Positions 2,415 through 64,000 of a stretch of 64,000 nucleotides of DNA are shown here, piece after piece; the first letter of the stretch is position 1; every line of letters begins with the position of its first letter. Made by a program: the position numbers and the translations under genes. The notes under the pieces are model-generated. The model did not search any database. It saw only the letters and a list, made by a program, of their open reading frames with translations, and was not told the origin of the DNA. The stretch is from contig JAJFJQ010000035.1 of assembly GCA_021773835.1 (NCBI GenBank), positions 109,781 through 173,780 on the forward strand, in the 5' to 3' direction. The DNA comes from Gammaproteobacteria bacterium (GTDB taxonomy: Bacteria; Pseudomonadota; Gammaproteobacteria; Ga0077536).

Positions 2415-3589
2415 GCCAAGCGATTTCACGCCACGTTTTCGAGCAGCGCCCACATGCCGAAGGCTACGGTTATGACCTGTGGCTTATCGGGGTTGCGGGT
2501 ATTCTCGTTGGCATGGGACTGGTGATGGTGGCTTCGTCCTCGATACCAATCGCACACAAAAACGGTTACGTCGACTTGTATTATTTCTGGCGCCAGTTGG
2601 CTGCTCTGCTACTCGGTGTTGGAATTGGCGCCATTGTCCTCCAAGTACCACTTGCGATGTTTGAGAAGATCAGCACTTTGTTGTTGTTCCTCGGTGTCGC
2701 ATCCCTGGCGATAATTTTGCTCCCGGGCGTTGGGCGTGAAGTTAATGGGAGTATTCGTTGGTTTCAAATTGGGCCGATATCGGTACAAGCTTCGGAGCCC
2801 GTAAAGCTTGCGATTATCGTGTACATCTCGTCATATTTGGTGCGTCATCAAGCACAGGTACAAAGCGAGTTTATAGGTTTTATAAAACCAGTTGGCGTAT
2901 TAACAATTATCGCGGGCTTGTTGCTGCTGGAACCAGATTTCGGAGCGGCCGTCGTCATATTTGCCACAACCTTAGGGATGCTTTTTCTCGGACGTGTACC
3001 ACTACTACGCTTTGCCGCTTGGGGTATGGTTGCATTGGCGATATTAACATCACTCGCGATGTTGGCGCCGTATCGATTGCAACGGCTCATGACATTCCTT
3101 GATCCATGGTCTGACCCCTACGATACCGGATTCCAATTGACCCAAGCGTTGATTGCATTTGGACGTGGAGAATGGTTTGGCGTTGGTCTTGGCAATAGCG
3201 TACAAAAATTATTCTATTTACCCGAGGTCCACACGGATTTTCTATTTGCCGTGATCGGCGAAGAGCTTGGAATGGTCGGAACGATTACCGTTATTGGTCT
3301 TTTCTTATTTCTAATCTGGCGGATATTTTTTATTGGTAGTTTGGCGCAACGAGCCGGACAACATTTTGCGGCGTATCTTTCGTATGGGATCGGGCTACTG
3401 ATCGGCATCGAAGCGTTTATTAATATTGGCGTCAATATGGGGCTGCTGCCAACGAAGGGGCTAACGCTCCCATTGATGAGCTACGGTAGTAACAGCATGC
3501 TTATCATCTGCATTATGTTGGCGATGGTTCTGCGGGTTGCCAAGGAATCACGCGCAGCATCAGGACGTGGACGACCGGCTTATGACTAA
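2411..3589 (+). CDS. ftsW: Peptidoglycan glycosyltransferase / lipid II flippase-family protein FtsW
   Basis: 392 aa polytopic membrane protein of the SEDS family. Its position between murD and murG is diagnostic. Confidence 0.88.
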   Translation: MSQAISRHVFEQRPHAEGYGYDLWLIGVAGILVGMGLVMVASSSIPIAHKNGYVDLYYFWRQLAALLLGVGIGAIVLQVPLAMFEKISTLLLFLGVASLAIILLPGVGREVNGSIRWFQIGPISVQASEPVKLAIIVYISSYLVRHQAQVQSEFIGFIKPVGVLTIIAGLLLLEPDFGAAVVIFATTLGMLFLGRVPLLRFAAWGMVALAILTSLAMLAPYRLQRLMTFLDPWSDPYDTGFQLTQALIAFGRGEWFGVGLGNSVQKLFYLPEVHTDFLFAVIGEELGMVGTITVIGLFLFLIWRIFFIGSLAQRAGQHFAAYLSYGIGLLIGIEAFINIGVNMGLLPTKGLTLPLMSYGSNSMLIICIMLAMVLRVAKESRAASGRGRPAYD

Positions 3590-4664
3590 TTTAGGACGTC
3601 CAATCCTCATCGTCGCTGGCGGCACCGGTGGCCACATCTACCCCGCGCTGGCGGTCGCAGACCACCTAAAGAACTACGATGTGAGTACCGTGTGGTTGGG
3701 TTCTGAAAGCGGTCTTGAAACGCGAATAGTCCCCGAAGCAGGAATTCGATTGTACAAAATTGCGGTTTCTGGTTTGCGCGGACGTGGGTTTTGGCGCTGG
3801 TTGCTCGCACCCGTCACATTGGGCATCGCATTGCTCCAGGCCTTGATAGCAGTGATGCGGATACAACCGATGCTAGTCCTCGGAATGGGCGGGTTTGCTA
3901 GTGGCCCTGGCGGTGTCGCGGCCTGGATATGCCGTAAGCCCCTGGTGATCCATGAGCAAAACGCGGTCCCAGGGTTAACGAATTCGATACTAAGCCACCT
4001 TGCCACGAAAGTCCTGCAGGGTTTCCCGGACGCATTTCCGACCGAGCGCCGAGCGGTTACGGTGGGTAATCCGATCCGCGAATCGATCGTGGCCATCGTC
4101 CCACCGGAGGTGCGAGAGAGGGAATTCGATGGAATTAGGATCCTTGTTATTGGAGGTAGTAGAGGTGCTCGCGCACTTAACGTTGGCGTACCTAAAGCGC
4201 TCGATCATCTAAGCGGTCCAGCTGTAGAAATTTGGCACCAGGCCGGGTCAGGTAATGATCTGATGACGCAGCAGGCTTATGCGTCGGCCAAGGCATCGAT
4301 ACGGGTGACGGAATTTATCGACGATATGGCCGCAGCCTATAGTTGGGCAGATATAGTAATTTGTCGCGCAGGCGCAATCACCGTGGGCGAGTTGGCGGCA
4401 GTCGGGGTGGCTTCAGTGCTTGTGCCTTTCCCGTATGCGGTTGACGACCATCAAACCGCTAATGCTCGGTATTTGGTTGACTCAAACGCCGCGATGATAG
4501 TCGCGGAGGGCCCAGAGTTTGAACAACGTCTGGCGGCGGCGGTGCAAAAATATTTGGATGGGGACCCAGATCCTTTGAGTGTTGCTAAGCAGGCGCGCGC
4601 ACTTGCGAAGCCAGATGCCGCAGCAAATGTCGTTTCTCAGTGCATGGGTTTACTGGATGTATGA
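3582..4664 (+). CDS. murG: UDP-GlcNAc:lipid I N-acetylglucosaminyltransferase MurG
   Basis: ORF 3537..4664. ATG at 3582 (MTNLGRPILIVAGGTGGHIYPALAVA...) overlaps the ftsW stop by 8 nt. The N-terminal GGTGGH motif is classic for MurG (GT28). Confidence 0.9.
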   Translation: MTNLGRPILIVAGGTGGHIYPALAVADHLKNYDVSTVWLGSESGLETRIVPEAGIRLYKIAVSGLRGRGFWRWLLAPVTLGIALLQALIAVMRIQPMLVLGMGGFASGPGGVAAWICRKPLVIHEQNAVPGLTNSILSHLATKVLQGFPDAFPTERRAVTVGNPIRESIVAIVPPEVREREFDGIRILVIGGSRGARALNVGVPKALDHLSGPAVEIWHQAGSGNDLMTQQAYASAKASIRVTEFIDDMAAAYSWADIVICRAGAITVGELAAVGVASVLVPFPYAVDDHQTANARYLVDSNAAMIVAEGPEFEQRLAAAVQKYLDGDPDPLSVAKQARALAKPDAAANVVSQCMGLLDV

Positions 4665-4680
4665 GTCCGATGACTTACCA

Positions 4681-6105
4681 ATGCGGCACGTTCGACGGAT
4701 CCATTTCGTTGGCATTGGTGGTGCCGGCATGAGCGGAATCGCGGAGGTTTTCAACAATTTGGGCTATACGGTTTCAGGCTCCGATCGAAGTGGAAACCGG
4801 ATGACGGCCCACTTGGCCTCTATCGGTGTTTCAATCTTCGATAATCACAACCGCACGAACATTTCAGGCGCAGATATCGTTGTCTACTCAAGTGCCATTC
4901 CTGCGGATAACGTAGAACTAATCGCCGCTCATGAGCAGTTGATCCCGACCGTACCGAGGGCCGAAATGCTGGCCGAGCTGATGCGATTTAAGCGAGGTAT
5001 CGCGGTTGCAGGAACCCACGGGAAGACGACGACGACGAGCTTAATCGCCAGCATCTTAGCCGAAGGCGGAATGGACCCGACGTTTGTGATCGGCGGTCTC
5101 GTGCACGCCGTAAACTCCCATGCACGTCTGGGCACCGGAGATTTCCTGGTCGCCGAGGCCGACGAGAGCGACGCTTCGTTTCTATTGCTAAATCCGTTGA
5201 TCGCGGCCCTCACGAATATTGATGCCGACCACATGGAAACCTACGATGGGGATTTCGGCAAGCTGCGTGCAACGTTCGTCGAATTCTTTAAGCGACTCCC
5301 ATTTTATGGTGTTGCGGTGGTTTGTCTCGACGATCCGATTGTGCAGTCGCTGCTCCCTGAACTACGTACCAGGGTAGTGACATACGGAACGCACGAACAA
5401 GCCGATGTTCGAGGTTTAGATTTTCAACAAGAAGGTGCGACGTCGAGCTTCAAGGTTGCACGGCGTAATTCGTCGGAAAGTTTAACCATCAACCTAAACA
5501 TGCCGGGCGAGCATAATATGCTCAATTCGCTTGCCGCAATTGCAATCGCCTTTGAATTGCGAATTTCGCAAGCAGCAATATCCAAGGCCTTATCTTCATT
5601 TCAAGGGATTGGGCGTCGTTGTCAATGGATGGGTGAAACGCGGATCGGCGAAGCCTTAGTCGCTGTGATCGACGACTACGGTCACCACCCCAGTGAATTG
5701 CGGGTGACACTCAAGGCGGTAAGAACCGGGTGGCCCGACCGCAGGTTATTGGTTGTCTTCCAACCCCATCGCTATTCGCGAACCCGAGAGTTGTTTGAAG
5801 ATTTCGTCGAGGTATTAAACACCGTCGATGCGCTGGTAGTGTTGGAAGTCTATCCCGCAGGAGAAGACCCTATTCCCGGCGCCGATGGCAGGGCACTGTG
5901 CGGGGCCGTTAGACAACGTGGCAAGGTCAATCCGGTATTTGTTCAGGATCCCGCATCGTTAAACGACGTCTTGAAAGACATCGCGCAAACCGGAGACGTA
6001 TTGCTGCTCCTCGGCGCCGGCAGTATTGGACGTGTGGCGGAAGGTATGACATTCGAAGAACAACGCGGCGAGCCTGATCGTCCGGATGAGAGTCAGGCGA
6101 ATTGA
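4681..6105 (+). CDS. murC: UDP-N-acetylmuramate--L-alanine ligase MurC
   Basis: ORF 4579..6105. Conserved N-terminus MRHVRRIHFVGIGGAGMSGIAEV begins at ATG 4681. An alternative ATG at 4657 overlaps the murG stop. The GTHGKTTTT P-loop is present. Confidence 0.88.
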   Translation: MRHVRRIHFVGIGGAGMSGIAEVFNNLGYTVSGSDRSGNRMTAHLASIGVSIFDNHNRTNISGADIVVYSSAIPADNVELIAAHEQLIPTVPRAEMLAELMRFKRGIAVAGTHGKTTTTSLIASILAEGGMDPTFVIGGLVHAVNSHARLGTGDFLVAEADESDASFLLLNPLIAALTNIDADHMETYDGDFGKLRATFVEFFKRLPFYGVAVVCLDDPIVQSLLPELRTRVVTYGTHEQADVRGLDFQQEGATSSFKVARRNSSESLTINLNMPGEHNMLNSLAAIAIAFELRISQAAISKALSSFQGIGRRCQWMGETRIGEALVAVIDDYGHHPSELRVTLKAVRTGWPDRRLLVVFQPHRYSRTRELFEDFVEVLNTVDALVVLEVYPAGEDPIPGADGRALCGAVRQRGKVNPVFVQDPASLNDVLKDIAQTGDVLLLLGAGSIGRVAEGMTFEEQRGEPDRPDESQAN

Positions 6106-7982: not shown

Positions 7983-8752
7983 TGCGGTCACATCGGGAAA
8001 CAGCGCAAGCGCATCGAGTTCGAGAGGTCGAAGATTCACAACATCGACACCCATTATTATTGCTCGTCGGGACCTTGGCGTTTCTGATGTTCTTATACGG
8101 TGGCTTTTTGGCCCAGCAATTATTTGATCCGGAGGCGTTTCCGATCCGCAAGATAGCCGTCGATGGAGAGTTTCATCACCTAAGTGCGGCGCATATGCAA
8201 ACCATCGTTTCGAAGGCCGTACACGGCGGGTTCTTCGATGTCGACGTAGCTTCAGTGCGTGCCCATCTACTAGATGAACCGTGGGTTTCTGAAGCGACGG
8301 TGCGTCGGGTGTGGCCCGACACGATCCGTGTCAGCATTCGCGAGCAGGTTGCAGTCGCGCGATGGGGGGAATATGCACTGTTGAATCCAATCGCAGACAT
8401 TTTTGTACCCGAATCGCGCGCAACCCCCCCGGGCTTGGTTGCGCTCGACGGGCCGATCGGCACCGAAGGCGAGATATTGCAGCGCTACTACGCTATGCAG
8501 AAGGTTCTAGACGACATTGGATTACAGGTTCAGCGGATCCGTTTATCTGAGCGGCGGGCATGGATAGTCGATATTGAAAACGGAGCGACCTTGGTGATCG
8601 GGCGACATGCGGTCGACGAACGTCTTGGGCGTTTTAGCCGCGCTTTCGAGCACGTGTTGAAGGGTAATTGGAATCGGGTTGCCCTAGTTGATCTTAGGTA
8701 TACGAACGGATTTGCGATCCGTGAAAAATCGGAAGATATCGACAATGGCTAG
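7979..8752 (+). CDS. ftsQ: Cell division protein FtsQ
   Basis: 257 aa with a single N-terminal TM then a POTRA-like periplasmic domain. Conserved position between ddl and ftsA. Confidence 0.85.
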   Translation: MMRSHRETAQAHRVREVEDSQHRHPLLLLVGTLAFLMFLYGGFLAQQLFDPEAFPIRKIAVDGEFHHLSAAHMQTIVSKAVHGGFFDVDVASVRAHLLDEPWVSEATVRRVWPDTIRVSIREQVAVARWGEYALLNPIADIFVPESRATPPGLVALDGPIGTEGEILQRYYAMQKVLDDIGLQVQRIRLSERRAWIVDIENGATLVIGRHAVDERLGRFSRAFEHVLKGNWNRVALVDLRYTNGFAIREKSEDIDNG

Positions 8753-8785
8753 GCGATATAAGACGCGTCATCGGAGTTCTACCGA

Positions 8786-10018
8786 ATGGTAAGAAAGCCA
8801 GATAAAAATTTAATAGTTGGCCTCGATATCGGCACCTCGAAGGTTGTAGCGATAGTCGGAGAGGTTTCGCTAGAGGGCGAACTAGAGATTGTCGGTATTG
8901 GTTCGCATGCATCGCGAGGCTTAAAGAAGGGCGTAGTTGTCAATATCGAATCGACGGTGCAATCGATCCAACGCGCAGTAGAAGAAGCCGAATTGATGGC
9001 TGGATGCGAGATACATTCGGTCTATGCAGGAATTGCCGGCAGCCATATACGTAGTCTTAATTCACACGGGATCGTCGCCATCCGTGATGGTGAAGTAAAT
9101 TCAACTGATGTCGAGCGAGTGATTGACGCGGCCCGGGCAGTCGCTATTCCAGCGGATCAAAAGATTCTTCACATTTTGCCGCAAGAGTTCATCATTGATG
9201 GACAAGAGGGGATCCGAGAGCCGATCGGAATGTCCGGAGTTCGGCTAGAGGCGCGCGTACACATGGTCACAGGGGCCGTCAGTGCAGCGCAGAACATCGT
9301 CAAATGTGTGCGTCGATGTGGACTCGAAGTGGACGACGTGATCCTACAACAGCTTGCTTCGTCTCATTCGGTCCTAACCGAAGATGAAAAAGATCTTGGT
9401 GTTTGTTTATGTGACATCGGCGGCGGTACGACGGACATAGCAATTTTTGTCAACGGGGCAATTCATCATTCGGCCGTTATTCCGATCGCCGGCGACCAGG
9501 TAACGAATGACATCGCAGTAGCATTACGCACACCAACACATCACGCCGAGGACATCAAGATTAAATACGCGTGTGCACTAACTCAGCTAGCTAATCCCGA
9601 AGAAACAATTGAAGTTCCGAGCGTTGGTGACCGCCAGCCCCGCCGGCTTGTACGACAAACATTGGCTGAAGTAGTGGAGCCGAGGTACGAAGAGTTATTT
9701 AGCCTAGTGCACGCTGAATTGAAGCGTAGTGGATTCGAGGAGATGGTCGCTGCAGGTGTCGTTTTAACTGGTGGTGGGTCAAAAATGGAAGGGGCGATCG
9801 ATTTGGCCGAAGAAGTGTTTCATATGCCCGTTCGTTTAGGCACGCCTCAGTATATTGCGGGACTGGTGGATGTTGTTAGGAATCCGATCTACGCGACCGG
9901 AGTCGGTCTACTGCTATTTGGCAATCACGCCGGTGATTCGCTAGCAGCGCACAACAGGTTTGAGAACACAGGAAGTATGTGGGAGCGAATGAAAAATTGG
10001 TTTCATGGGAATTTCTGA
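8786..10018 (+). CDS. ftsA: Cell division protein FtsA
   Basis: 410 aa actin-like ATPase (LIVGLDIGTSKV..., DIGGGTTD). Located upstream of ftsZ. Confidence 0.93.
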   Translation: MVRKPDKNLIVGLDIGTSKVVAIVGEVSLEGELEIVGIGSHASRGLKKGVVVNIESTVQSIQRAVEEAELMAGCEIHSVYAGIAGSHIRSLNSHGIVAIRDGEVNSTDVERVIDAARAVAIPADQKILHILPQEFIIDGQEGIREPIGMSGVRLEARVHMVTGAVSAAQNIVKCVRRCGLEVDDVILQQLASSHSVLTEDEKDLGVCLCDIGGGTTDIAIFVNGAIHHSAVIPIAGDQVTNDIAVALRTPTHHAEDIKIKYACALTQLANPEETIEVPSVGDRQPRRLVRQTLAEVVEPRYEELFSLVHAELKRSGFEEMVAAGVVLTGGGSKMEGAIDLAEEVFHMPVRLGTPQYIAGLVDVVRNPIYATGVGLLLFGNHAGDSLAAHNRFENTGSMWERMKNWFHGNF

Positions 10019-52207: not shown

Positions 52208-53344
52208 ATGAAGGCGCCAATGATTAATATACTCACGGTCTTCGGCACTCGTCCGGAGACGATCAAGATGGCACCGCTAATTGCTGAGCTGGAAAGGCGT
52301 CCAAATTTCATTAAAAACCGCAACTGTCTCACCGGTCAGCATAAAGACATGGTTGCGCCACTTATCGATCTTTTTGGTATTCGAGTCGATCATAACCTCG
52401 ACTTAATGAGAGATAACCAGACGCTCGAACATATCACGGTCGCGGTACTACAAGAGATCTCCCATATCCTACGTGAGGAAGAATTCGATCTGCTATTGGT
52501 GCAGGGAGATACAACGACCTCTATGGCTGCTGCATTGGCGGCCTTTTATTCAGGGGTGAAAATTGGTCATGTGGAAGCGGGGTTACGCACATTTGATAAA
52601 TTTCATCCGTACCCGGAAGAGTCGAACAGAAAGATTATCGACTCGGTGTCGGACCTATTCTTTGCGCACACAGATGCGGCGAAACGGAATCTGGTCAAGG
52701 AAGGAATTGCAGAAGACCACGTTGCGGTTACCGGAAACACGGTGATCGACGCACTACTTGATATCTCAAATCGTCCTTTTAGTTTTTCCGGAACGGCGCT
52801 GGAATCCCTGCCATTCGACTCCAAACGAATAATTCTGGTCACTGCCCATCGTCGCGAAAGTTTCGGCGAGCCGTTTGAGTCCATGTGTCTTGGGTTGCGA
52901 CGACTTGCAGAGAAATATCGAGAGGAAATCGTTCTTGTATATCCGGTGCACCGAAACCCAAATGTCCGGAAGGTCGTGAATAGCATTTTGTCGGGCATTG
53001 ATAACGTGAATCTTATTGAACCATTGGATTACATGCCACTTGTTCACTTGATGAAGAATTCTTACATGGTGCTGACCGATTCAGGCGGACTGCAAGAAGA
53101 GGCTCCTAGCCTCGGTAAACCGGTTCTCGTACTGCGTAAGCTTACAGAGCGTCAGGAAGGAGTTGAGGCCGGAACAGTTAAAATAGTTGGAATGGATGCT
53201 GATGATATTGTCGCAGAGGCGTCTTTGCTACTCGATGATAAATCGACGTATAAGGCGATGACCGCAAAAATCAATCCGTACGGGGATGGAACAGCGAGCG
53301 TTCAGATTGTGAGTCGCATCCTCGATCAGTTCGGCCTGGACTAA
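52208..53344 (+). CDS. wecB: UDP-N-acetylglucosamine 2-epimerase (non-hydrolysing, WecB/MnaA-like)
   Basis: 378 aa (ILTVFGTRPETIKMAPLI, QGDTTTSMAAALAAFYSGVKIGHVEAGLRTFDKFHPYPEE, LTDSGGLQEEAPSLGKPVLVLR). Confidence 0.88.
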   Translation: MKAPMINILTVFGTRPETIKMAPLIAELERRPNFIKNRNCLTGQHKDMVAPLIDLFGIRVDHNLDLMRDNQTLEHITVAVLQEISHILREEEFDLLLVQGDTTTSMAAALAAFYSGVKIGHVEAGLRTFDKFHPYPEESNRKIIDSVSDLFFAHTDAAKRNLVKEGIAEDHVAVTGNTVIDALLDISNRPFSFSGTALESLPFDSKRIILVTAHRRESFGEPFESMCLGLRRLAEKYREEIVLVYPVHRNPNVRKVVNSILSGIDNVNLIEPLDYMPLVHLMKNSYMVLTDSGGLQEEAPSLGKPVLVLRKLTERQEGVEAGTVKIVGMDADDIVAEASLLLDDKSTYKAMTAKINPYGDGTASVQIVSRILDQFGLD

Positions 53345-53354
53345 GGAAGCAAAT

Positions 53355-54293
53355 ATGGGCATTGCTAAGCTTAAATCGCTGGTCAATTCTGTGCCGATGC
53401 TAAACGCCATAGCTCGATTCGTACATATGATCTATTCCATCAGCGTAAATAAATGCTTAAAAACCCTTACGTTTTCCCCTCCAGGTCACTTCTATTCACC
53501 GTTACCGAATTTGAAACATGTCGCGGAGAACGCCGGAAGTATATTTCACAAAGCGACGACACTCCCTGCTATCGAACTAAGATCAGTTCAGCAGCTGGAA
53601 TTATTAGAGAACTTTCGGCAATACGGTGCAGGTGATGCGCTTCACGAGCGGCAGTCTCCTTCGGTGAGATACTATTCAGATAACCCCTACTTTGGAGATG
53701 GAGATGCAGTAATCCTTTTCAGTTTATTGCGCCATTTCAAACCGAAACAGCTTATCGAAGTCGGCTCCGGATTTTCTTCCGCGCTAATTCTCGACATCAA
53801 TGACGAGTTCTTTGGTAACGAGATCGATTTGACGTTTATTGAACCGTTTAGTGAACGTCTACTCGGGTTATTGTCAGGCAACGATAAAGACAAGTGCCGC
53901 CTGATTGAAGAACCAGTTCAACAGGTTTCGATTGAGATTTTCAATGCGCTAGATAGTAACGACGTGCTATTCATCGATTCGTCGCACATCGTGAAGGTTG
54001 GAAGCGACGTAACGCACATTATTTTAAACATCCTACCCGCCTTGAAGCCCGGCGTTATCGTCCATTTTCATGATATCTTGTGGCCGTTCGAGTACCCAGA
54101 AGATTGGCTTATGCAAGGTATTTCATGGAATGAGGCCTACTTCCTACGTGCGTTCCTGGAATATAACCAAGCGTTCGAGATTCTTTACTTTAATTCGTAC
54201 ATCGCGGAATGCTTTCCAGATCAACTCACCAATTGTTTTTCTAAACCGCTGAAAAATACTGGCGGGAGCATTTGGTTACGCAAAATTTCATGA
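53355..54293 (+). CDS. Class I SAM-dependent methyltransferase-like protein (Methyltransf_24-like)
   Basis: 312 aa with a glycine-rich SAM motif (LIEVGSGFSS) and DxxFIDxxH-type blocks (VLFIDSSH, HFHDI), as in sugar O-methyltransferases of this fold. Assigned by motif only. Confidence 0.5.
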   Translation: MGIAKLKSLVNSVPMLNAIARFVHMIYSISVNKCLKTLTFSPPGHFYSPLPNLKHVAENAGSIFHKATTLPAIELRSVQQLELLENFRQYGAGDALHERQSPSVRYYSDNPYFGDGDAVILFSLLRHFKPKQLIEVGSGFSSALILDINDEFFGNEIDLTFIEPFSERLLGLLSGNDKDKCRLIEEPVQQVSIEIFNALDSNDVLFIDSSHIVKVGSDVTHIILNILPALKPGVIVHFHDILWPFEYPEDWLMQGISWNEAYFLRAFLEYNQAFEILYFNSYIAECFPDQLTNCFSKPLKNTGGSIWLRKIS

Positions 54294-55908: not shown

Positions 55909-56715
55909 TTAAACGCGCTTGAGATACCCGGACGGCGCGGTTGTCAGCAGCAGCTTGTCTTCAATGTGGTTTGCTATTTGGAGTTTCAGAATGTTCCCGT
56001 CACTCGCTAAGGTTGCGCCGTCATCTAAGGTTTTTAGGTATTGAATTACGGCTGTCTTCGCATTGTTTCCGACTCCCCATGGGCGATCGTCGAAAAATGA
56101 ATCCGACAGATCCTCGATCAACGTGTCGAAAACGATGCAATAACTCCCTGAGCTGACGAGGGGTGCGTAAGCCTCCAACTCCCCGAGTACGTGGTCGTGC
56201 GTGTGATTCGAATCGAGCATTACGAGGACAGTGTTGAACGGTTTCGACAGTTCCTGAACCTTCGCCACAGTGTCAGGGCTAATCGAAGAACCCTCAATCA
56301 GGTCAATTCGACTAAACATGGGGTGTCTTTCTATCTCGCGTCGATTATGAGACCGAATATCGATGTCTATCGCGAGCACTTTACGTTTAGGCTGATTAGG
56401 ATCCAAGGATTCGCCCGCCGCAACCGCGTCACTGTAGTCTAGGAGCGCTAGCATCGAGGCCGTAAAAATGACTGAGCCCCCATGTGCAATACCGGTTTCG
56501 ATTACCAGATCAGGTTTGACCGTCCAAATTAATTCTTGGACAGCCACAATATCCTGAGGGTACTGAATTATGGGGCGCCCTAACCAATCAAAATTGTATG
56601 AGTACCGCGCGGTAACTGATTCATCGAGAAATGCCGCCGCGGCTGCTTGCAGGCTCGCACTCGATCGATAGGTCGAAATTGACGCGTTGCGTTCGTCGTT
56701 AAAATTTTCAGCCAT
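55909..56715 (-). CDS. CmcI/cephalosporin-hydroxylase-family methyltransferase (sugar O-methyltransferase type)
   Basis: 268 aa with the conserved core VIETGIAHGGSVIF and an acidic pocket LVMLDSNHTHDHV, as in CmcI / rhamnosyl O-methyltransferases. Confidence 0.65.
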   Translation of the reverse strand: MAENFNDERNASISTYRSSASLQAAAAAFLDESVTARYSYNFDWLGRPIIQYPQDIVAVQELIWTVKPDLVIETGIAHGGSVIFTASMLALLDYSDAVAAGESLDPNQPKRKVLAIDIDIRSHNRREIERHPMFSRIDLIEGSSISPDTVAKVQELSKPFNTVLVMLDSNHTHDHVLGELEAYAPLVSSGSYCIVFDTLIEDLSDSFFDDRPWGVGNNAKTAVIQYLKTLDDGATLASDGNILKLQIANHIEDKLLLTTAPSGYLKRV

Positions 56716-57245: not shown

Positions 57246-58364
57246 GTGGAGCCAATGAAAGAGCGAATACATTACACCAAACCTTCCGTAACTGACCGTG
57301 AAGTGGACTTTGCAAGTGACGCGGCAAGAAATGGTTGGGGGGAAAAGTGTTATGAGTACATTGGTCGCTTTGAGGAAATGTTCAAGCAATACACGGGGGC
57401 AAAATACGCTATATCGACCTCCAGTTGCACTGGCGCATTGCATCTGGGAATGGCGGCTTTGGGGATCGGGCCTGGCGATGAGGTAATCCTTGCTGACACC
57501 AATTGGATAGCTACGGCCGCACCCATTACATATCTTGGCGCCAAACCAGTCCTTGTTGATATTCTGCCTGATAGTTGGTGCATCGATCCTGACAAGATTG
57601 AAGCCGCTATTACACCGAATACTAAAGGGATAATAGCGGTCCACCTGTATGGCAATCTGTGTGAGATGGATCGCCTACTCGATATCGGTGAAAAGTATGG
57701 ACTGCCGATAATTGAAGATTCGGCTGAAGCCCTCGGTTCATTCTGGAATCAGAAACATACCGGCACTATGGGTAGGTTCGGTACTTTTTCTTTTCATGGC
57801 ACCAAGGCCATTACAACCGGCGAAGGTGGCATGTTCATTACTAACGACGAAGATCTCTACGACACTGTTTCGGTTTTAAGCAATCACGGACGCTCGAGTT
57901 CCCAAACGAAACAATTTTGGCCCGATATGATCGGATTTAAATACAAACTATCCAACATACAGGCTGCAATCGGATGTGCTCAGATGGAGCGGATTGAAGA
58001 ATTAATTACTCGTAAACGAGAGATTTTTGCCTATTACCATCAGCACTTAGGTGGAATCGATGGTATCCATATGAACCCCGAGCAAGAAGGGAATAAAAAT
58101 AGTTATTGGATGCCAACTGTGGTATTCGATAAGGCGCTGGGCATTTCCCGGGAAGCGGCGATGGATGCCTTCAGTAAGGAAAACATTGATGCGAGGGTAT
58201 TTTTTTGGCCATTGAGTGCGCTAGATATGTTCGAAGACGTTCTGCAGAACACTAACGCCTGGGATATACCGGCGCGCGCGATCAACCTTCCGAGCTATCA
58301 TGATCTTTCGATTGCCCAGCTGGACAGGGTATCCAGTGTCATACAAGACGGATTATTAAGATGA
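57246..58364 (+). CDS. DegT/DnrJ/EryC1/StrS-family PLP-dependent sugar aminotransferase
   Basis: 372 aa with a GTG start (alternative ATG at 57255). The PLP-lysine region FSFHGTKAITTGEGG is diagnostic. Confidence 0.85.
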   Translation: MEPMKERIHYTKPSVTDREVDFASDAARNGWGEKCYEYIGRFEEMFKQYTGAKYAISTSSCTGALHLGMAALGIGPGDEVILADTNWIATAAPITYLGAKPVLVDILPDSWCIDPDKIEAAITPNTKGIIAVHLYGNLCEMDRLLDIGEKYGLPIIEDSAEALGSFWNQKHTGTMGRFGTFSFHGTKAITTGEGGMFITNDEDLYDTVSVLSNHGRSSSQTKQFWPDMIGFKYKLSNIQAAIGCAQMERIEELITRKREIFAYYHQHLGGIDGIHMNPEQEGNKNSYWMPTVVFDKALGISREAAMDAFSKENIDARVFFWPLSALDMFEDVLQNTNAWDIPARAINLPSYHDLSIAQLDRVSSVIQDGLLR

Positions 58365-59002
58365 AACCCGTAGTCGTATGGGGGGGCACCGGACAACTCG
58401 TTGTTATTGACGAATTTATTAAAGATTTAGGATATGAAATAAAGGCAGTTATCGATAACGACTCGTCTGTTAAAGCGCAGATCGAAGGTGCGCAGACTTA
58501 TCATCAGGAGGAAGGGCTAAATCGATTTCTGTCAAGTTACCAAGGCGAGGCCTTGGGGTTTATCGTGGCTATCGGTGGTGATAAAGGGAAGGACCGTTTT
58601 GAAATATCCACTCTGCTCCAAAGTTATAATTTGTACCCCGTCAAGATCGTACACCCCCGGGCGTATATAGCTCGAAGTGCTAAAGTTGGCGAGGGATGCC
58701 AAGTCATGGCCAACGCAACCCTTGGAGCAAGAGCCGTTCTAGGTCGTTATTCACTGCTGAACACCGGCTGCGTGGTCGACCATGAATGTCAATTAGGTAT
58801 CGGTGTCCATATTGGGCCTGGCGCGTCTCTCGCTGGTTCGGTCGAAGTGGGTGATTACTCGTTTATCGGAACGGGTGCGGTTGTACTGCCGAAACTCCAT
58901 ATCGGACGGAACAGTATTGTCGGTGCCGGCAGCGTTGTGACCAGAAACGTCCCACACAATACGGTTTGCTATGGAAACCCGGCTCGAGTGAGGCAAAAAT
59001 GA
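58361..59002 (+). CDS. Sugar N-acetyltransferase, NeuD/PglD-type (left-handed beta-helix)
   Basis: 213 aa. The N-terminal Rossmann-like part (VVVWGGTGQLVVIDEF) is followed by hexapeptide repeats. Overlaps the aminotransferase stop (ATGA). Confidence 0.75.
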   Translation: MKPVVVWGGTGQLVVIDEFIKDLGYEIKAVIDNDSSVKAQIEGAQTYHQEEGLNRFLSSYQGEALGFIVAIGGDKGKDRFEISTLLQSYNLYPVKIVHPRAYIARSAKVGEGCQVMANATLGARAVLGRYSLLNTGCVVDHECQLGIGVHIGPGASLAGSVEVGDYSFIGTGAVVLPKLHIGRNSIVGAGSVVTRNVPHNTVCYGNPARVRQK

Positions 59003-59310
59003 TCATATTGAACGATTGAGATTGCGCGCTACTAACAACGCACGCGTGGCACGTTATTTTGGGCATATTAAATTCATGAAACAGCGCTTCGAACTCGTCA
59101 ACCTGCCCGCGCCAGGGAGGTGAAGTTGCAATCGACCGTCGGAAGTTCTCATGACAAGCGATGATGAGATCTTACCGCTGTTGAGTAAGGCCACATCGAC
59201 CTTATGATCGTGCTCCAATGCACCTTGGTCATGCTTCGGAGACATTGATAGAATGTGCGCTGCTGGATTCTCTTGCTCTTTCCTGTCGTCGAATTATCAA
59301 GGTACTAAAT

Positions 59311-60099
59311 ATGTCGAAGCGTGAAATTTCGAAGGGTCCCAAGAGCGAGCGTAAGGGAAGCGTTTATCCCCACGACGAAGACATATCCGATCGGCTTGAT
59401 GTCATAGTCAAGGAATTCGAAAGGCCAATACAAGATGTCCTGGAATCTTTTCCCGTTTACGCGAGACGGATACATCTGACGAGATTCCTCGCGCATTACG
59501 AACTCTATAAGCAAGTTGCGGACTTACCCGGATCCATATTCGAGTGTGGTGTTTACCGCGGTAGTGGACTATTTACCTGGGCTAAGTTGTTGGAAATATT
59601 CCATCCAGGAGATCGTCTGCGAAAAGTGATTGGATTTGATAACTTCGAAGGTTTTGTTTCTTTCCACTCGAAGGACGGAGCAGAGCAGCAGGACCGTGCA
59701 AAAACGATCGGGGGGTGGAACGCGGGCGACTATTATCCGGAACTTTTAAAGCACATTGATATATTCCACGAGGATAGCTTTCTACCTCGCGCTACGAGAA
59801 TTGAGCTCGTCGCCGGCGATCTTGCACAAAGCGCATCCAAGTATGTATCCGAAAATCCCGGAACTCGAATATCGTTGTTACATCTTGATGTTGATCTGTA
59901 CGAACCAACTATAGCGGCTCTTAAGGCATTTTATCCGCTAGTCGTCGAAGGCGGACTTATCGTACTTGACGAATACGGTATTAAGGACTGGCCAGGGGCA
60001 AGTCAGGCCGTCGAAGAATACTTTTCGGATCAAATGCCCCGAATACAAAAGCTCCCGTACTGTTCGTCTCCTGGAGGCTACATCGTGAAGGGCAGTTAA
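59311..60099 (+). CDS. TylF/MycF-family (macrocin-type) O-methyltransferase
   Basis: ORF 59218..60099. ATG at 59311 (MSKREIS...). Motifs IFECGVYRGSG, GFDNFEGF and LHLDVDLYEPT match the TylF family. Confidence 0.7.
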   Translation: MSKREISKGPKSERKGSVYPHDEDISDRLDVIVKEFERPIQDVLESFPVYARRIHLTRFLAHYELYKQVADLPGSIFECGVYRGSGLFTWAKLLEIFHPGDRLRKVIGFDNFEGFVSFHSKDGAEQQDRAKTIGGWNAGDYYPELLKHIDIFHEDSFLPRATRIELVAGDLAQSASKYVSENPGTRISLLHLDVDLYEPTIAALKAFYPLVVEGGLIVLDEYGIKDWPGASQAVEEYFSDQMPRIQKLPYCSSPGGYIVKGS

Positions 60100-60267: not shown

Positions 60268-61593
60268 TTAGCGCTTAGCAGTCGTGGCGTTCTTGGCGCT
60301 TCTTGGTAGTTTAAGAAAACACAACATCACATGAACGTCTGGATAGTAGATATTGGGTTCTCGAAAGAAATCGATGTGACATCCAATTTCGGCGTTATTC
60401 CAGTGAGCGTCACCCTGAAGAATGCGCTTAAGCAGACGCGGATCCATTTCGCACCGCAGGTAAGGAGGCGTGTAGGTCGGGCTATCCCCTACCAATCGCC
60501 CTTCGGGCTTTGAAAAGGAAAATTCATAGGTGTCCTGTTGAAATGAGAGATAGATGTTGTAGTCCAACGTCCAGTTATTCTTTGTTTGAATGTCCCACAA
60601 TTGCGAACGCGCGAGCGGGAGGTTTGTCCGCAAAAATGTGGTGCACTCGCTCATGGGATCCGATTCGAAGGGGTACGGTATATCCAATAGGTTTTGTTCG
60701 ACGTATTCGTTTTGACCCGCCCAATCGGGTTGTACATACGCTCCGTTCGTGATCGATTTAGATTCGAAATCGAACACTTGACCTTCGCTCATGACCAGCG
60801 TCTTTTGCTTAGGTAGCTTGTTGGCGACGTACTCGGCGGCGCGATCCCAACTACAGGTTCCCAAACATTGATTCTTTTTCGCCTGACCACCTGCGAGAAC
60901 GAACGAACCAGCAAATGGCATCAGAAATTCCGGTGCTAATATCTCAGTCAATTCGGTGAGATATTCGAGGTTTCGATTTCGAATGCGGTCGGCTTCCTTC
61001 AGGCGATCGATTTCTGAAAAGTTCATGAAGCAGGTCGGAAACGGACTGGCCGCGTTATATTTCACGAGCGCCAATGTGAATCCTCCGTGCCGGTCTCGCA
61101 GACGACGGGCGCCATCCAGTGACGGGTTATTGTCATTCCCGTTGAAAAGAGAGCGCTTTCCCGCTTCAACAACCACTGAGCTATCGATGATATTGCCGAT
61201 CTCCGCCCGATGGAAAATGTCAGGCGCAAAAGGACCATACATGGTCAGTTCTAGTGGGCCGACTTTTTTCGTTTCTGAATCTTTAATCGGTACCAAGTTA
61301 GTGAAGCCGAGTGTATTTAGGAGTCTATGGAGAAAGTTTGCGCCGTGATCCAATACGATAATTGGAACATCTTTAGGGAAGGGGATTAGACTTGCAGGAT
61401 CGTAGTGATCTGGGTGAAGGTGGCTGATGTAAATTGCATCGACGCCAACCAAGTCCTCGGGTTTTGTCTTAATAGGAGGGTAGTGATACCACGACCCTTC
61501 AAACGCGCCGTCGGTGAGCCACGGGTCGGTTAGAATTCTATACCTGTCATACTCGATGATCGAGCAAGCGTTGTCGATGAACTGAAATTTCAA
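60268..61593 (-). CDS. MBL-fold (metallo-beta-lactamase superfamily) protein with uncharacterised C-terminal domain
   Basis: 441 aa. The N-terminal about 180 aa carry the HxHxDH motif (ISHLHPDHYD). The C-terminal about 250 aa have no motif I recognise. Confidence 0.55.
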   Translation of the reverse strand: MKFQFIDNACSIIEYDRYRILTDPWLTDGAFEGSWYHYPPIKTKPEDLVGVDAIYISHLHPDHYDPASLIPFPKDVPIIVLDHGANFLHRLLNTLGFTNLVPIKDSETKKVGPLELTMYGPFAPDIFHRAEIGNIIDSSVVVEAGKRSLFNGNDNNPSLDGARRLRDRHGGFTLALVKYNAASPFPTCFMNFSEIDRLKEADRIRNRNLEYLTELTEILAPEFLMPFAGSFVLAGGQAKKNQCLGTCSWDRAAEYVANKLPKQKTLVMSEGQVFDFESKSITNGAYVQPDWAGQNEYVEQNLLDIPYPFESDPMSECTTFLRTNLPLARSQLWDIQTKNNWTLDYNIYLSFQQDTYEFSFSKPEGRLVGDSPTYTPPYLRCEMDPRLLKRILQGDAHWNNAEIGCHIDFFREPNIYYPDVHVMLCFLKLPRSAKNATTAKR

Positions 61594-61675: not shown

Positions 61676-62929
61676 CTAGAACACGCGGATTTCAGGGATC
61701 GCGGTTACAAATTTCGAATCCCACTCACGAATATAAGCGCAGCGTTGTTGGATTTCGTCAACGATATTCCATGGAAAAACTAGTAGATAATCTGGCTTCA
61801 ATTCCTCAATGACGGACGGCGGGGAAATAAAGATGTGATTGCCAGGTAAATACATGCCTTGTTTTGATGGCGCAGCGTCACAAATCGTTGATATCAAATC
61901 GGCCTTTACGCCAGCGAAGTTGAGTAATGTATTTCCTTTTGCCGCGGCGCCGTATCCTACGATGGTTTTGTTGGCCCGTTTTGCGTCCAACAGGAACTGT
62001 AGAAACTCAAATTTTATCGTGTCCACTCGTGATTGAAACCCAGTATAGGCGTCGATTGATTGAAGTCCACAACGCCGTTCTGTTTCGATAATTCGCCCAA
62101 TAGCAGGGGTTTCCACATGTGAAGCATCGGGTAAACAGCCGTAGATGCGTAAACTGCCGCCATGGGTGGCTAGTTCATCGACGTCGAATATCCGTAATCC
62201 GGCATTGGCAAAAATCAATTGAACGCTTGTTAAGCTGAGGTAAGAAAAATGCTCGTGATAAACGGTGTCAAATTGCATCCCGTCTATGAGCTTTAGCAAG
62301 TGTGGAAACTCTAATGTCACCACCCCATTTTCATTGAGGGTGGTTGCGATACCTTTGGCGAAATCTAATATGTCTGGTACATGCGCGAATACGTTGTTGC
62401 CGATCAACAGATCCGCGCCGCCTCGTGATTGAGCAAGTCCGCGCGCGAATTCCTCGCCAAAGAACTCTGTAATCGTTTCGACACCGAGCTTTCGCGCAGC
62501 TGCGGCCGTCGATTCAGTTGGCTCGATGCCGAGGCACGGTATACCTAGGTCGATAAAATTCCTTAGCAAGTATCCGTCGTTACTCGCAACCTCGATAACG
62601 TGATTGGACGAACTCAACTGAAGACGATCTACGATCATTCGGGAATAATCTCCAGCGTGTTTTAGCCAGCCAGACGATACCGACGAAAAGTACGCGTAAT
62701 CCGCGCTAAAGAGCTCGTTCGCCCGTGCGAAATCCTGAGTCTGAACTAACCAGCAGCCCTCGCATACATACAGCCTTAAAGGATAGTACAGTTCCGGTTC
62801 GTCGAGGGCCTGTACAGACAGATATGCGTTCGACGGTGGTGCGAACCCGAGATCTAGAAATTTTACAGTCAGTTGTTTTGAGCAATGCCGACATTGCGGT
62901 TGCAGTCCTTGTATGGACTCCGCCGTCAT
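61676..62929 (-). CDS. NDP-hexose C-methyltransferase-type enzyme (TylC3/NovU-like; zinc-binding N-terminus + class I MTase + C-terminal domain)
   Basis: 417 aa. Two N-terminal Cys pairs (CRHC..., CEGC...) then a class I fold (VIEVASNDG). This is the architecture of the sugar C-3 methyltransferases of deoxysugar pathways. Confidence 0.65.
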   Translation of the reverse strand: MTAESIQGLQPQCRHCSKQLTVKFLDLGFAPPSNAYLSVQALDEPELYYPLRLYVCEGCWLVQTQDFARANELFSADYAYFSSVSSGWLKHAGDYSRMIVDRLQLSSSNHVIEVASNDGYLLRNFIDLGIPCLGIEPTESTAAAARKLGVETITEFFGEEFARGLAQSRGGADLLIGNNVFAHVPDILDFAKGIATTLNENGVVTLEFPHLLKLIDGMQFDTVYHEHFSYLSLTSVQLIFANAGLRIFDVDELATHGGSLRIYGCLPDASHVETPAIGRIIETERRCGLQSIDAYTGFQSRVDTIKFEFLQFLLDAKRANKTIVGYGAAAKGNTLLNFAGVKADLISTICDAAPSKQGMYLPGNHIFISPPSVIEELKPDYLLVFPWNIVDEIQQRCAYIREWDSKFVTAIPEIRVF

Positions 62930-63477
62930 AAGGAAATTCCAGCAAAGTCCGCTTTGATTAGTGGATGAGATCGGTCGCGCTCAGACACGTTGGAAATTTC
63001 GATTGGCCATTCTATCGCTACACTCGGATCGTTATAGCGTACGCCACCTTCCGCGCCGGGATCGTAGTGGGCGGAATGTAAATATAGTAGTTCAGAATTA
63101 GGTTCTAAGGATTGAAATCCGTGGGCAAACCCTTGCGGAATTATCAATGCTAAATTGTCATCGGCCGATAATCGCTCCCCGTGCCAACGTAGCATACTGT
63201 TCGAATTAGAGCGAAGGTCTAGGGCAACGTCGAACACCGCGCCTCTAATACATCTTACAATTTTAATTTCTGAAGACGGGGGGTATTGGAAATGCAAGCC
63301 CCGAATGCTGCCAGGCGTTGTTGTCATCGAATGGTTAATTTGAACAATCGTCTTCCCATCTAGAACTTCCTGAAGCTCGCGGTCGCAAAATAGTCTATAG
63401 AAGCTACCCCGTTCATCAGAGATATAGTCCATTTCAAGTATTTGTAAATCCTGAATCGATGTAGTCTGAAAGTCCAT
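62926..63477 (-). CDS. RmlC-like cupin, NDP-4-keto-6-deoxyhexose 3,5-epimerase family
   Basis: 183 aa with an IRGLHFQ signature and overall dTDP-4-dehydrorhamnose-3,5-epimerase family blocks. Confidence 0.75.
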   Translation of the reverse strand: MDFQTTSIQDLQILEMDYISDERGSFYRLFCDRELQEVLDGKTIVQINHSMTTTPGSIRGLHFQYPPSSEIKIVRCIRGAVFDVALDLRSNSNSMLRWHGERLSADDNLALIIPQGFAHGFQSLEPNSELLYLHSAHYDPGAEGGVRYNDPSVAIEWPIEISNVSERDRSHPLIKADFAGISL

Positions 63478-64000
63478 TCAACCAGCGTACTCTCGTATTT
63501 GATCGCGACACAACAATTGCGCATTACTTCCACCGCGCTCATTCCCGTACCAGTCGCTGACTTTTTGAATTGTTTCGTCAATGTGCCATTTGGGATTCCA
63601 GCCGAGAAGCTTTTTTGCGTCGCTGCTATCGAGTTTCAGAATTGTAGCTTCGTGTACCCCAGGCTCAGGATTAACCGTCAATGTGCTTGATGTGCCGGAC
63701 AGATCCACTATGCGCTCGGCAACCCATTCTACAGTCCTAACGTCACGCTCATCTGGCCCGAAATTCCAGCTCCTATCGAATCCTTTTTTTCCCTGCCCCA
63801 AGTGCTCTGCCAACAATAGATACCCGGCAAGTGACTCAAGTACGTGTTGCCATGGACGTACTGAACTTGGGTTTCGAAGAACGATGTCTTCGCCTCGTTC
63901 AATCGCTCTCATCAAATCGGGAAGTAGACGGTTAGGAGACCAGTCACCCCCTCCAACCACGTTGCCTGCACGTGCAGTCGCTATTAGTGTATTTTTTCTC
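63478..64000 (-). CDS. CDP-glucose 4,6-dehydratase-like SDR (C-terminal part; 5' end beyond window)
   Basis: The C-terminal 160 aa include SVRPWQHVLESLAGYLLL, characteristic of CDP-glucose 4,6-dehydratase (DdhB/RfbG). No stop separates the reading frame from the window edge. Confidence 0.65.
   Translation of the reverse strand, partial: RKNTLIATARAGNVVGGGDWSPNRLLPDLMRAIERGEDIVLRNPSSVRPWQHVLESLAGYLLLAEHLGQGKKGFDRSWNFGPDERDVRTVEWVAERIVDLSGTSSTLTVNPEPGVHEATILKLDSSDAKKLLGWNPKWHIDETIQKVSDWYGNERGGSNAQLLCRDQIREYAG

Follow-up and report, generated by a model that had tools for sequence, protein, structure and literature searches.

The window analysed here is a 64,000-nucleotide stretch from a Gammaproteobacteria bacterium (GTDB lineage Ga0077536; contig JAJFJQ010000035.1 of assembly GCA_021773835.1, positions 109,781 to 173,780), and our subject is a gene on its minus strand (60268..61593) that encodes a protein with a metallo-β-lactamase (MBL) fold. 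Sequence comparisons identified this protein as a full-length homologue of the catalytic part of CMP-N-acetylneuraminate hydroxylase (CMAH), the enzyme with which deuterostome animals make the sialic acid Neu5Gc; the homology takes in the CMAH MBL domain and C-terminal domain together. CMAH is accepted to be an MBL-fold oxygenase whose target is the acetyl methyl of the cytidine-nucleotide sugar CMP-Neu5Ac (PMC4819959), so that an earlier reading of this DNA from its letters alone (the sequence-only reading), which did not count MBL-fold enzymes among the standard members of NDP-sugar pathways, is not supported on this point. We infer, at about even probability, that the window protein is an O2-dependent iron hydroxylase that would convert the N-acetyl group of a cytidine-nucleotide sugar to N-glycolyl, after which an adjacent methyltransferase would cap the new hydroxyl.

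The window protein and its relation to CMAH

The open reading frame (ORF) specifies 441 residues and starts at a TTG codon, with the Shine-Dalgarno sequence GGGAGGGGG a few bases before it, and the N-terminus is the same as in 38 aligned homologues. It is a real gene and not a chance ORF, because the databases contain a protein identical to it and homologues along its full length were retrieved with E values down to 8e-162. Scans for promoters and terminators around the gene gave nothing better than shuffled sequence. Pfam placed Lactamase_B_2 at residues 19-182 (E 1.3e-8) and Lactamase_B_3 at residues 3-77, with no match past residue 182, and NCBIfam returned nothing useful. Residues 56-65 read ISHLHPDHYD and contain an intact HxHxDH metal-binding motif (H58, H60, D62, and H63; 61405..61422, minus strand), which is invariant in 39 family members, in CMAH and in the bacterial Rieske-type relatives. 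The MBL-fold ORF with an intact metal site that had first been read here was in this way confirmed by ORF reading, translation, and Pfam.

A protein database search with the MBL protein returned 718 clusters at E<=1e-3, the best 120 of which were nearly all full-length (415-480 aa), with 39-55% identity. Where members of this family are named by NCBI, the name is "MBL fold metallo-hydrolase"; JGI automatic annotation calls many of them "UDP-MurNAc hydroxylase," and it was this second name that led us to look at the group of CMAH and NamH. A CMAH sequence served as bait only: it fetched genuine named CMAHs, the best of them 97% identical to the bait, and the CMAH comparisons were made with these retrieved sequences. 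In BLASTP, the window protein matched CMAH of the sperm whale (P0125) with an E value of 2e-12 over query residues 1-232 (CMAH 137-363), with a second, colinear segment pairing query 370-417 with CMAH 504-551. Alignment of 39 family members with 19 vertebrate CMAHs by hhalign gave 98.6% probability and an E value of 8e-16 over 389 columns, extending across query 1-418 and CMAH 135-552.

A CMAH profile searched against 1.84 billion representatives found 2315 relatives (E<=1e-3), including 193 at E<=1e-30, and most were 520-600 aa in length. By BLASTP, the window protein aligned over its full length with two of them, P0356 (query 1-419 vs. 144-557, E 2.5e-25) and P0339 (query 1-437 vs. 126-553, E 3.6e-22). 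Its alignments to the long CMAH relatives begin directly after their N-terminal part, which Pfam identified as a Rieske domain (PF00355) in all six of the long proteins checked. The window protein itself gave no Pfam match to PF00355; like the 38 relatives aligned with it, it opens with the first MBL strand, at the position of CMAH residue 135.

A joint alignment of the Rieske-less family, CMAH, and the bacterial Rieske+MBL proteins identified 18 residues invariant in all three groups (D23, P24, W25, W35, S57, H58, H60, D62, H63, D137, D154, A182, P226, A228, G229, W398, G404, and P413), and I403, R411, and Y416 are conserved to at least 90% across the superfamily, CMAH included. Several of these lie in a conserved C-terminal motif, HWNNAEIGCHIDFFREPNIY (residues 397-416; 60346..60405, minus strand), whose CMAH counterpart is LWDDLYIGFQTRLQRDPDIY. 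Within the motif W398, N399, E402, G404, H406, and R411 are invariant in the family; E402 and H406 are specific to it, CMAH carrying Y and Q at these positions, so that the family has HWNNAEIGCH where CMAH-type proteins have W-[DE]-D-L-x-I-G-F-Q. From the colinear alignments with CMAH and the Rieske+MBL proteins and from the joint alignment, the C-terminal part, in which the sequence-only reading had found no recognisable motif, is therefore recognisable as the C-terminal region of CMAH-type hydroxylases (BLASTP, hhalign, and joint alignment). Its modelled fold is SCP2-like.

Four further Rieske-less proteins of 408-430 aa (P0290, P0376, P0377, and P0385) lie in a branch that scores much nearer to animal CMAH (for instance, E 4e-85 for P0290 against the CMAH profile). 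Their position within the CMAH-near branch means that either the Rieske domain was lost or absent more than once, or some of these sequences are fragments.

AlphaFold2 with the family alignment predicted an MBL fold for the whole protein at high confidence (pLDDT 94.6, pTM 0.92). In a Foldseek search of the PDB with this model only the first ~300 residues found partners, and the top matches of the MBL half were the diiron MBL monooxygenases FrsH (8a90) and CmlA (4jo0), at ranks 1 and 3-6 (E ~1e-12 to 1e-11), followed by NAPE-PLD, UlaG, and SaxA. A family sequence profile searched against PDB sequences matched SaxA at 1e-13, FrsH at 8e-7, and CmlA at 3.5e-6, the FrsH and CmlA matches covering query residues 2-125. 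The Foldseek matches and the superfamily-invariant residues place the catalytic domain at residues 1 to ~232 (60898..61593, minus strand), where the MBL fold ends with the PFAG strand, and the additional C-terminal part is accordingly ~205 aa long and not the 250 aa first given. Since the whole-model search had matched the MBL half alone, the fold of the remainder became visible only when residues 236-441 (60268..60888, minus strand) were modelled separately (pLDDT 91.6). Foldseek of this second model returned almost only SCP2-fold proteins (SCP2, UbiJ-SCP2, and the C-terminal domains of SdsA1, SdsAP, YjcS, and Pisa1), matches that were marginal but highly consistent (top E 6e-4 to ~1e-2, or to 7e-2 with the weaker ones included). 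The AlphaFold2 models and Foldseek matches therefore predict an MBL domain (1 to ~232) that is joined by a helical linker to an SCP2-like α/β domain, and this last part is colinear in sequence with the C-terminus of CMAH.

The putative metal ligands H58, H60, D62, H63, D137, and D154 correspond in CMAH to H195, H197, D199, H200, D270, and D287. Among the 39 family sequences there is no invariant histidine between residues 64 and 396, and the motif-3 and motif-5 histidine ligands of zinc MBL hydrolases are therefore not conserved. As judged by sequence and secondary structure, Asp137 would stand in the place of motif 3 and Asp154 in the bridging place of motif 4. Iron-dependent MBL oxygenases such as CmlA have sites that are enriched in carboxylates in this way. 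The ligand set of the canonical di-zinc MBL hydrolases (UlaG, SaxA, NAPE-PLD, and glyoxalase II type), which consists of HxHxDH with a motif-3 His, a motif-4 Asp/Cys, and a motif-5 His, was compared as a candidate and rejected, as the family has the HxHxDH motif and the motif-4-like D154 together with no invariant histidine at 64-396.

Gene neighborhoods in the window and around homologues

The putative operon extends upstream of the MBL gene, on the same minus strand, with genes for a TylC3-type sugar C-methyltransferase (61676..62929; Pfam Methyltransf_13 at 3e-22, Methyltransf_23, and Methyltransf_14 at 4e-55), an RmlC-like cupin of the 3,5-epimerase family (62926..63477; PF00908 at 2.7e-54, TIGR01221 at 158 bits), and the C-terminal part of a CDP-glucose 4,6-dehydratase that is cut by the window end (63478..63960; TIGR02622 at E 1.8e-49 over profile positions 192-351, and the dTDP-glucose dehydratase model at 4.7e-5). 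From the upstream end toward the MBL gene, the spacings on this strand are 0 bp, a 4-bp overlap, and then 82 bp, which bears out the co-orientation and tight packing of these genes noted from the sequence alone. Downstream, three genes on the plus strand (57246..60099) converge on the MBL gene. They encode a DegT/DnrJ/EryC1-type sugar aminotransferase (57246..58364; PF01041 at 1.7e-120), a NeuD/PglD-type hexapeptide N-acetyltransferase (58361..59002; TIGR03570 at 180 bits), and a TylF-like O-methyltransferase (59218..60099; PF05711 TylF at 7e-15), the last with its stop codon 168 bp from that of the MBL gene.

Among the closest relatives, nine of which (46-55% identity) were looked up singly, the cassette of the window recurs in five (P0002, P0003, P0007, P0009, and P0014) in other arrangements, with an NTP-transferase, a 4,6-dehydratase, a Methyltransf_13/14 C-methyltransferase, DegT, a hexapeptide acetyltransferase, and the MBL gene. 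Four of the five cassettes (P0002, P0003, P0009, and P0014) also have a CmcI-like (RMNT_CmcI) gene and two have an RmlC-like gene. Three of the other relatives (P0015, P0016, and P0020) lie in clusters with NeuB, CTP_transf_3, and an aminotransferase, accompanied in two of the three by a GNAT acetyltransferase. The P0012 locus has only sulfotransferase-like and acetyltransferase genes beside the MBL gene. The P0015 contig (JGI 3300059473) carries, in a nonulosonic-acid cluster, two MBL paralogues (3473-4756 and 8268-9614; 427 and 448 aa), one overlapping DegT and a CTP_transf_3 cytidylyltransferase and the other overlapping the end of NeuB; the two may act on two different N-acyl positions.

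For the wider family we surveyed one genome per species, giving 80 loci, and clustered the ORFs lying within 6 kb of the MBL homologue in 79 of them. The 80 loci include Pelagibacteraceae (11), Halobacteria (19), Caulobacteraceae, Chlamydiota, Bacteroidota, Planctomycetota, candidate-phyla bacteria, and Nitrosopumilaceae. Within the 6 kb the recurrent neighbors were NeuB-type synthases (17 loci), DegT (16), PseB/CapD-type dehydratases (15), class-I S-adenosylmethionine-dependent methyltransferases (10, in eight of which the gene directly adjoins the MBL gene), a cytidylyltransferase-like cluster without Pfam support (7), PseG-like proteins (7), TylF-like methyltransferases (7), and CTP_transf_3 cytidylyltransferases (4). 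A nucleotide-sugar marker was found in at least 32 of the 79 loci and one of the two methyltransferase types in 16. The CDP-hexose and CMP-nonulosonate contexts have in common a cytidine-nucleotide sugar, an aminotransferase and, in most clusters, an N-acyl/acetyltransferase.

The linkage of the MBL gene to the C-methyltransferase, which the sequence-only reading had stressed, holds for the closest clade (five of nine homologues of at least 46% identity) and fails in the wider family, where tblastn placed a TylC3-type C-methyltransferase near the MBL homologue in one of 80 loci (L003), at a distance of 3.3 kb and on the opposite strand. For the closest clade this 80-locus test is misleading, because the only very close locus in it (L002) ends at a contig edge and the others are 27-47% identical.

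Methyltransferase genes are the most frequent direct neighbors of the MBL homologues, and a gene for an enzyme that would cap a hydroxyl often adjoins the MBL gene. For instance, a TylF-like gene lies 69-155 bp from the MBL homologue in L028, L034, L049, L052, and L080 (tblastn), and a Methyltransf_23 gene adjoins it in L082, L084, and L088. In L085 and L086 the MBL gene is immediately preceded by an acetyltransferase gene, with one base shared by the end of the latter and the start of the former; in L003, which is the same contig as P0014/L086, the acetyltransferase gene lies ~24 bp upstream (tblastn). A Sulfotransfer_3-like gene precedes the MBL gene in L083 (7592-11043), L086 (6965-11657), and L085 (6870-10332), and an APS kinase gene follows a few genes downstream in L083 (11862-12389) and L086. 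These sulfotransferase-like and APS kinase genes suggest that in loci of this type the proposed hydroxyl is sulfated instead of methylated.

Two haloarchaeal plasmid homologues (30% identity), whose loci had shown no sugar marker in the clustering, proved on annotation to sit in glycan islands with glycosyltransferase genes, one island also holding GNAT, DegT, and an acyltransferase and the other GlmU. A tblastn search of a plasmid collection gave 98 matching records, 75 of them from Escherichia (none of these among the 12 best-ranked listed); seven records matched over 80% or more of the query, and all seven are haloarchaeal megaplasmids. In phages, the search yielded no more than short matches to the N-terminal MBL part, in two records from Staphylococcus phages.

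Returning to the window, the genes described above belong to a glycan island (~46-64 kb) that continues to the left with a CmcI/rhamnosyl O-methyltransferase-like gene (55909..56715, minus strand; PF04989 at 1.7e-84), a Wzx-type flippase, another Methyltransf_24 protein, two Epimerase_2 proteins, and two glycosyltransferases. The G+C content of the island is 0.455-0.49, compared with mostly 0.51-0.56 in the rest of the window, which is ordinary chromosome (murD, murC, ftsA, ftsZ, secA, pilB, and clpB). The lower G+C therefore suggests a surface-polysaccharide locus that was horizontally acquired or is fast-evolving, set beside a conserved region (dcw genes, secA, pilB, and clpB). In all, three genes of the Methyltransf_24 superfamily were found in the island: an unnamed one at 53355-54293 (+), the CmcI-like gene at 55909-56715 (-), and the TylF-like gene at 59218-60099 (+). 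Taken together with the C-methyltransferase, they imply a heavily methylated sugar. The two Epimerase_2 genes (UDP-GlcNAc 2-epimerase family; 48365-49453, minus strand, and 52208-53344, plus strand) comprise one strong match (2.7e-110) and one divergent copy (1.8e-46), possibly for a hydrolysing enzyme of the NeuC/LegG type. The island ORFs scanned included no NeuB-type synthase, and there were no non-ribosomal peptide synthetase genes among the ORFs scanned at 41-64 kb. Upstream of the island are two adjacent large ORFs (41298-43283 and 43285-45252, both plus strand; 661 and 655 aa) that had no Pfam match at E<=1e-4, and a 980-aa protein (45359-48301, plus strand) in which nothing was recognised except a spermine/spermidine synthase domain (residues 528-676).

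Proposed function and competing explanations

A tailoring enzyme of a nucleotide-sugar pathway, one of the roles suggested at the outset, is very probable for the window protein, as its cassette recurs in five of the nine closest homologues. In the pathway we propose, CDP-glucose would pass through the 4,6-dehydratase, the RmlC-like protein, the C-methyltransferase, and the DegT aminotransferase to the NeuD-type N-acetyltransferase, and the likely substrate, to go by the gene context, would be a CDP-linked N-acetylamino, C-methyl-branched 6-deoxyhexose. The MBL protein would hold iron by H58, H60, D62, H63, D137, and D154 and, with O2 and electrons from a general cellular reductant, would hydroxylate an unactivated methyl on this cytidine-nucleotide sugar. 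If CMAH is a guide, the N-acetyl methyl is the likeliest target and would become N-glycolyl; the TylF-like O-methyltransferase (59218..60099) would then cap the new hydroxyl, and in some relatives the capping enzyme may be a sulfotransferase instead. The SCP2-like domain, which bears the superfamily-wide W..IG..R.P..Y motif, probably closes over the substrate pocket or helps to form it. Both recurrent contexts, CDP-hexose and CMP-nonulosonate, use cytidine nucleotides, as CMAH does. Two natural sugars are unconfirmed leads here, our literature searches on vinelose, O-methylglycolyl, and kansosamine having yielded nothing of use: Azotobacter vinelandii has the vinelose derivative CDP-6-deoxy-3-C-methyl-2-O-methyl-4-O-(O-methylglycolyl)-aldohexose, and Mycobacterium kansasii has N-acylkansosamine.

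A broader and more tentative proposal, to which we give rather less than even credence, is that the Rieske-less family as a whole comprises widespread stand-alone MBL-fold iron hydroxylases that convert N-acetyl to N-glycolyl groups, subsequently O-methylated or O-sulfated, on CDP-hexoses and on CMP-legionaminic and CMP-pseudaminic acids. The family would then be a minimal prokaryotic form of the CMAH catalytic module that uses a non-dedicated electron donor. The hosts of such a class would include SAR11, haloarchaea, Chlamydiota, candidate-phyla bacteria, and a wide range of further aerobes. Most of the host lineages that have a name are aerobic (e.g., Pelagibacteraceae, Halobacteria, Caulobacteraceae, Flavobacteriia, and Nitrosopumilaceae), which is weakly consistent with an O2-dependent enzyme.

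Several points weigh against an N-acetyl hydroxylase, the chief of them being the supply of electrons. CMAH takes its electrons via its own Rieske domain and cytochrome b5 (PMC4819959), and the window protein is without that domain. Regular-expression motif scans found no ORF for a Rieske or 4Fe-4S ferredoxin within 6 kb in 77 of the 79 loci, and none at 44-64 kb of the window, and this lack of an encoded electron source is the main weakness of the proposal. Moreover, N153 and N155 (of an NDN at 153-155), E402, and H406 are invariant in the family and differ from CMAH, and because these residues are the family's own, its substrate or chemistry may differ from that of CMAH. Among PDB sequences, the MBL half is matched best by a hydrolase, SaxA (1e-13); about half of the 79 loci have no labelled sugar marker within 6 kb, as far as the crude clustering could tell; and our search of the literature found no paper characterising any Rieske-less family member. 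Finally, in the window the MBL gene is nearest to the C-methyltransferase, which makes the C-methyl branch an alternative target. On the question of electrons, MBL-fold iron hydroxylases without a fused Rieske domain do exist, namely CmlA and FrsH.

A 121-aa ORF in L008 (8064-8429, minus strand) with a Rieske-type CxH...CxxH pattern lies 1.6 kb from the MBL homologue, one of two such cases in the 79 loci; by its motif, it could be a stand-alone Rieske ferredoxin partner.

The proximity of the C-methyltransferase raises the possibility that a CMAH-type oxygenase has another target, namely the C-methyl branch (to give a C-hydroxymethyl sugar), the 6-methyl, or a ring C-H of the CDP-sugar. In the window the MBL gene follows directly after the C-methyltransferase on the same strand, at 82 bp, the two co-occur in five of the nine closest homologues, and E402, H406, and the NDN motif are unlike CMAH and suggest a different substrate pocket. 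Against this, most family members have no C-methyltransferase nearby, L085 holds only sulfotransferase-like, acetyltransferase, and MBL genes, and the two recurrent contexts share an aminotransferase and, in most clusters, an acyl/acetyltransferase. It is the N-acetyl group, too, that is hydroxylated by CMAH and by NamH, a characterised relative. We regard another target as quite unlikely.

A metal-dependent hydrolase (phosphodiesterase, esterase, thioesterase, or sulfatase-like) acting on a sugar nucleotide, an acyl donor, or a lipid-linked intermediate would agree with the NCBI name, with the generic MBL hydrolase families that are all Pfam and NCBIfam provide, with SaxA as best PDB sequence match and NAPE-PLD and UlaG among the top fold matches, with an SCP2-fold C-terminal domain such as the MBL alkylsulfatases SdsA1, SdsAP, YjcS, and Pisa1 possess, and with the fact that no redox partner is encoded nearby. 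However, the homology to the CMAH superfamily spans the whole length and is far stronger, the hydrolase matches staying within the N-terminal half, and there is neither a sequence match to the SdsA1 family nor an Alkyl_sulf Pfam domain. Zinc hydrolases have histidines in motifs 3 and 5 that are not conserved here, Asp137 being at what we take to be the motif-3 position, and neither the CDP-hexose nor the CMP-nonulosonate cassette shows an obvious missing hydrolytic step. The "hydrolase or cyclase" role of the sequence-only reading is thus less likely than an oxygenase because of the full-length homology to CMAH, and we keep a hydrolase as an unlikely rival. That the gene is a passenger in the glycan island, encoding a non-catalytic binding or scaffold protein or an enzyme of some other pathway, would fit the heterogeneous neighborhoods of the wider family; it is very improbable given metal-ligand residues that are invariant in 39/39 family members and across the superfamily, a cassette kept in distant lineages, and a glycan context that recurs in bacteria and archaea.

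Significance and comparison with known systems

The fold and the probable chemistry are already known; what has not been described is the combination of MBL and SCP2-like domains without a Rieske domain, how broad the family is, and the CDP-hexose and CMP-Leg/Pse derivatives on which it probably acts. If our proposal is true, N-glycolyl-type acyl groups (hydroxyacetyl, methoxyacetyl, or sulfo-oxyacetyl) would occur on the surface sugars of abundant microbes, including Pelagibacteraceae and haloarchaea. To our knowledge such groups are considered rare in prokaryotes. N-glycolyl nonulosonic acids have not been described in bacteria, according to a paper on Tannerella (PMC5378307). Small, soluble, single-module bacterial proteins would also become available as models of the CMAH catalytic domain. 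No CMAH structure had been reported as of 2016 (review, PMC4819959), and none was found in our PDB sequence, profile, and Foldseek searches with the window protein. The proposal would further pose the mechanistic question of how the module receives electrons without a Rieske domain, and it would correct the uninformative name "MBL fold metallo-hydrolase" for several hundred protein clusters. The family is large, is present in very abundant organisms, and is directly testable.

Of the known systems, the SdsA1-type (class III) alkylsulfatases resemble the window protein in having an MBL domain followed by an SCP2-like domain, a likeness at the level of fold that is marginal (E ~2e-3, TM-score ~0.35 normalised to the query), and their central dimerisation domain is absent from it. 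Membership of the SdsA1 type was considered and rejected, as no Alkyl_sulf Pfam domain was found and no chain of the SdsA1 family appeared in the phmmer and profile searches of the PDB; we regard this as a resemblance only. CmlA and FrsH, the top structural matches of the MBL half, have an HxHxDH MBL domain that is similar in both sequence and structure, and they demonstrate that an iron hydroxylase of the MBL fold can activate O2 with no Rieske domain fused to it. They differ from the window protein in carrying another, ~250-aa N-terminal domain (the matches start at CmlA 255-273 and FrsH 253, and at query residue 1-4), in lacking an SCP2-like C-terminal domain, and in acting on carrier-protein-tethered amino acids in non-ribosomal peptide pathways, and their sequence similarity to the window protein extends over only ~120 residues.

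The bacterial Rieske+MBL proteins are colinear with the window protein over its full length, right after their Rieske domain; they are 520-600 aa long with PF00355, whereas the Rieske-less family is 415-480 aa long without it. To this group we presume the mycobacterial UDP-MurNAc hydroxylase NamH to belong, in keeping with the JGI naming. The context of the window protein is not peptidoglycan precursor synthesis. The window protein is without one defining feature of CMAH and NamH, the Rieske domain, and should not be filed as an orthologue of either; the JGI name is therefore an over-annotation of substrate, and the NCBI name is probably wrong about the chemistry.

CMAH itself shares with the window protein an MBL domain in which HxHxDH and two Asp residues are conserved, and a C-terminal domain that is colinear and bears the W..IG..R.P..Y motif. 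To judge by its gene context, the window protein may also share the link of CMAH to an N-acetyl cytidine-nucleotide sugar. CMAH has an N-terminal Rieske [2Fe-2S] domain, whereas the window protein has none and starts at the equivalent of CMAH residue 135. The identity between the two is only ~19-25%, NDN at 153-155, E402, and H406 are specific to the family of the window protein, and there are two short insertions. The window protein, moreover, is prokaryotic, of a family encoded in CDP-hexose or nonulosonate clusters, and its likely substrate is a CDP-linked 6-deoxy amino hexose and not CMP-Neu5Ac.

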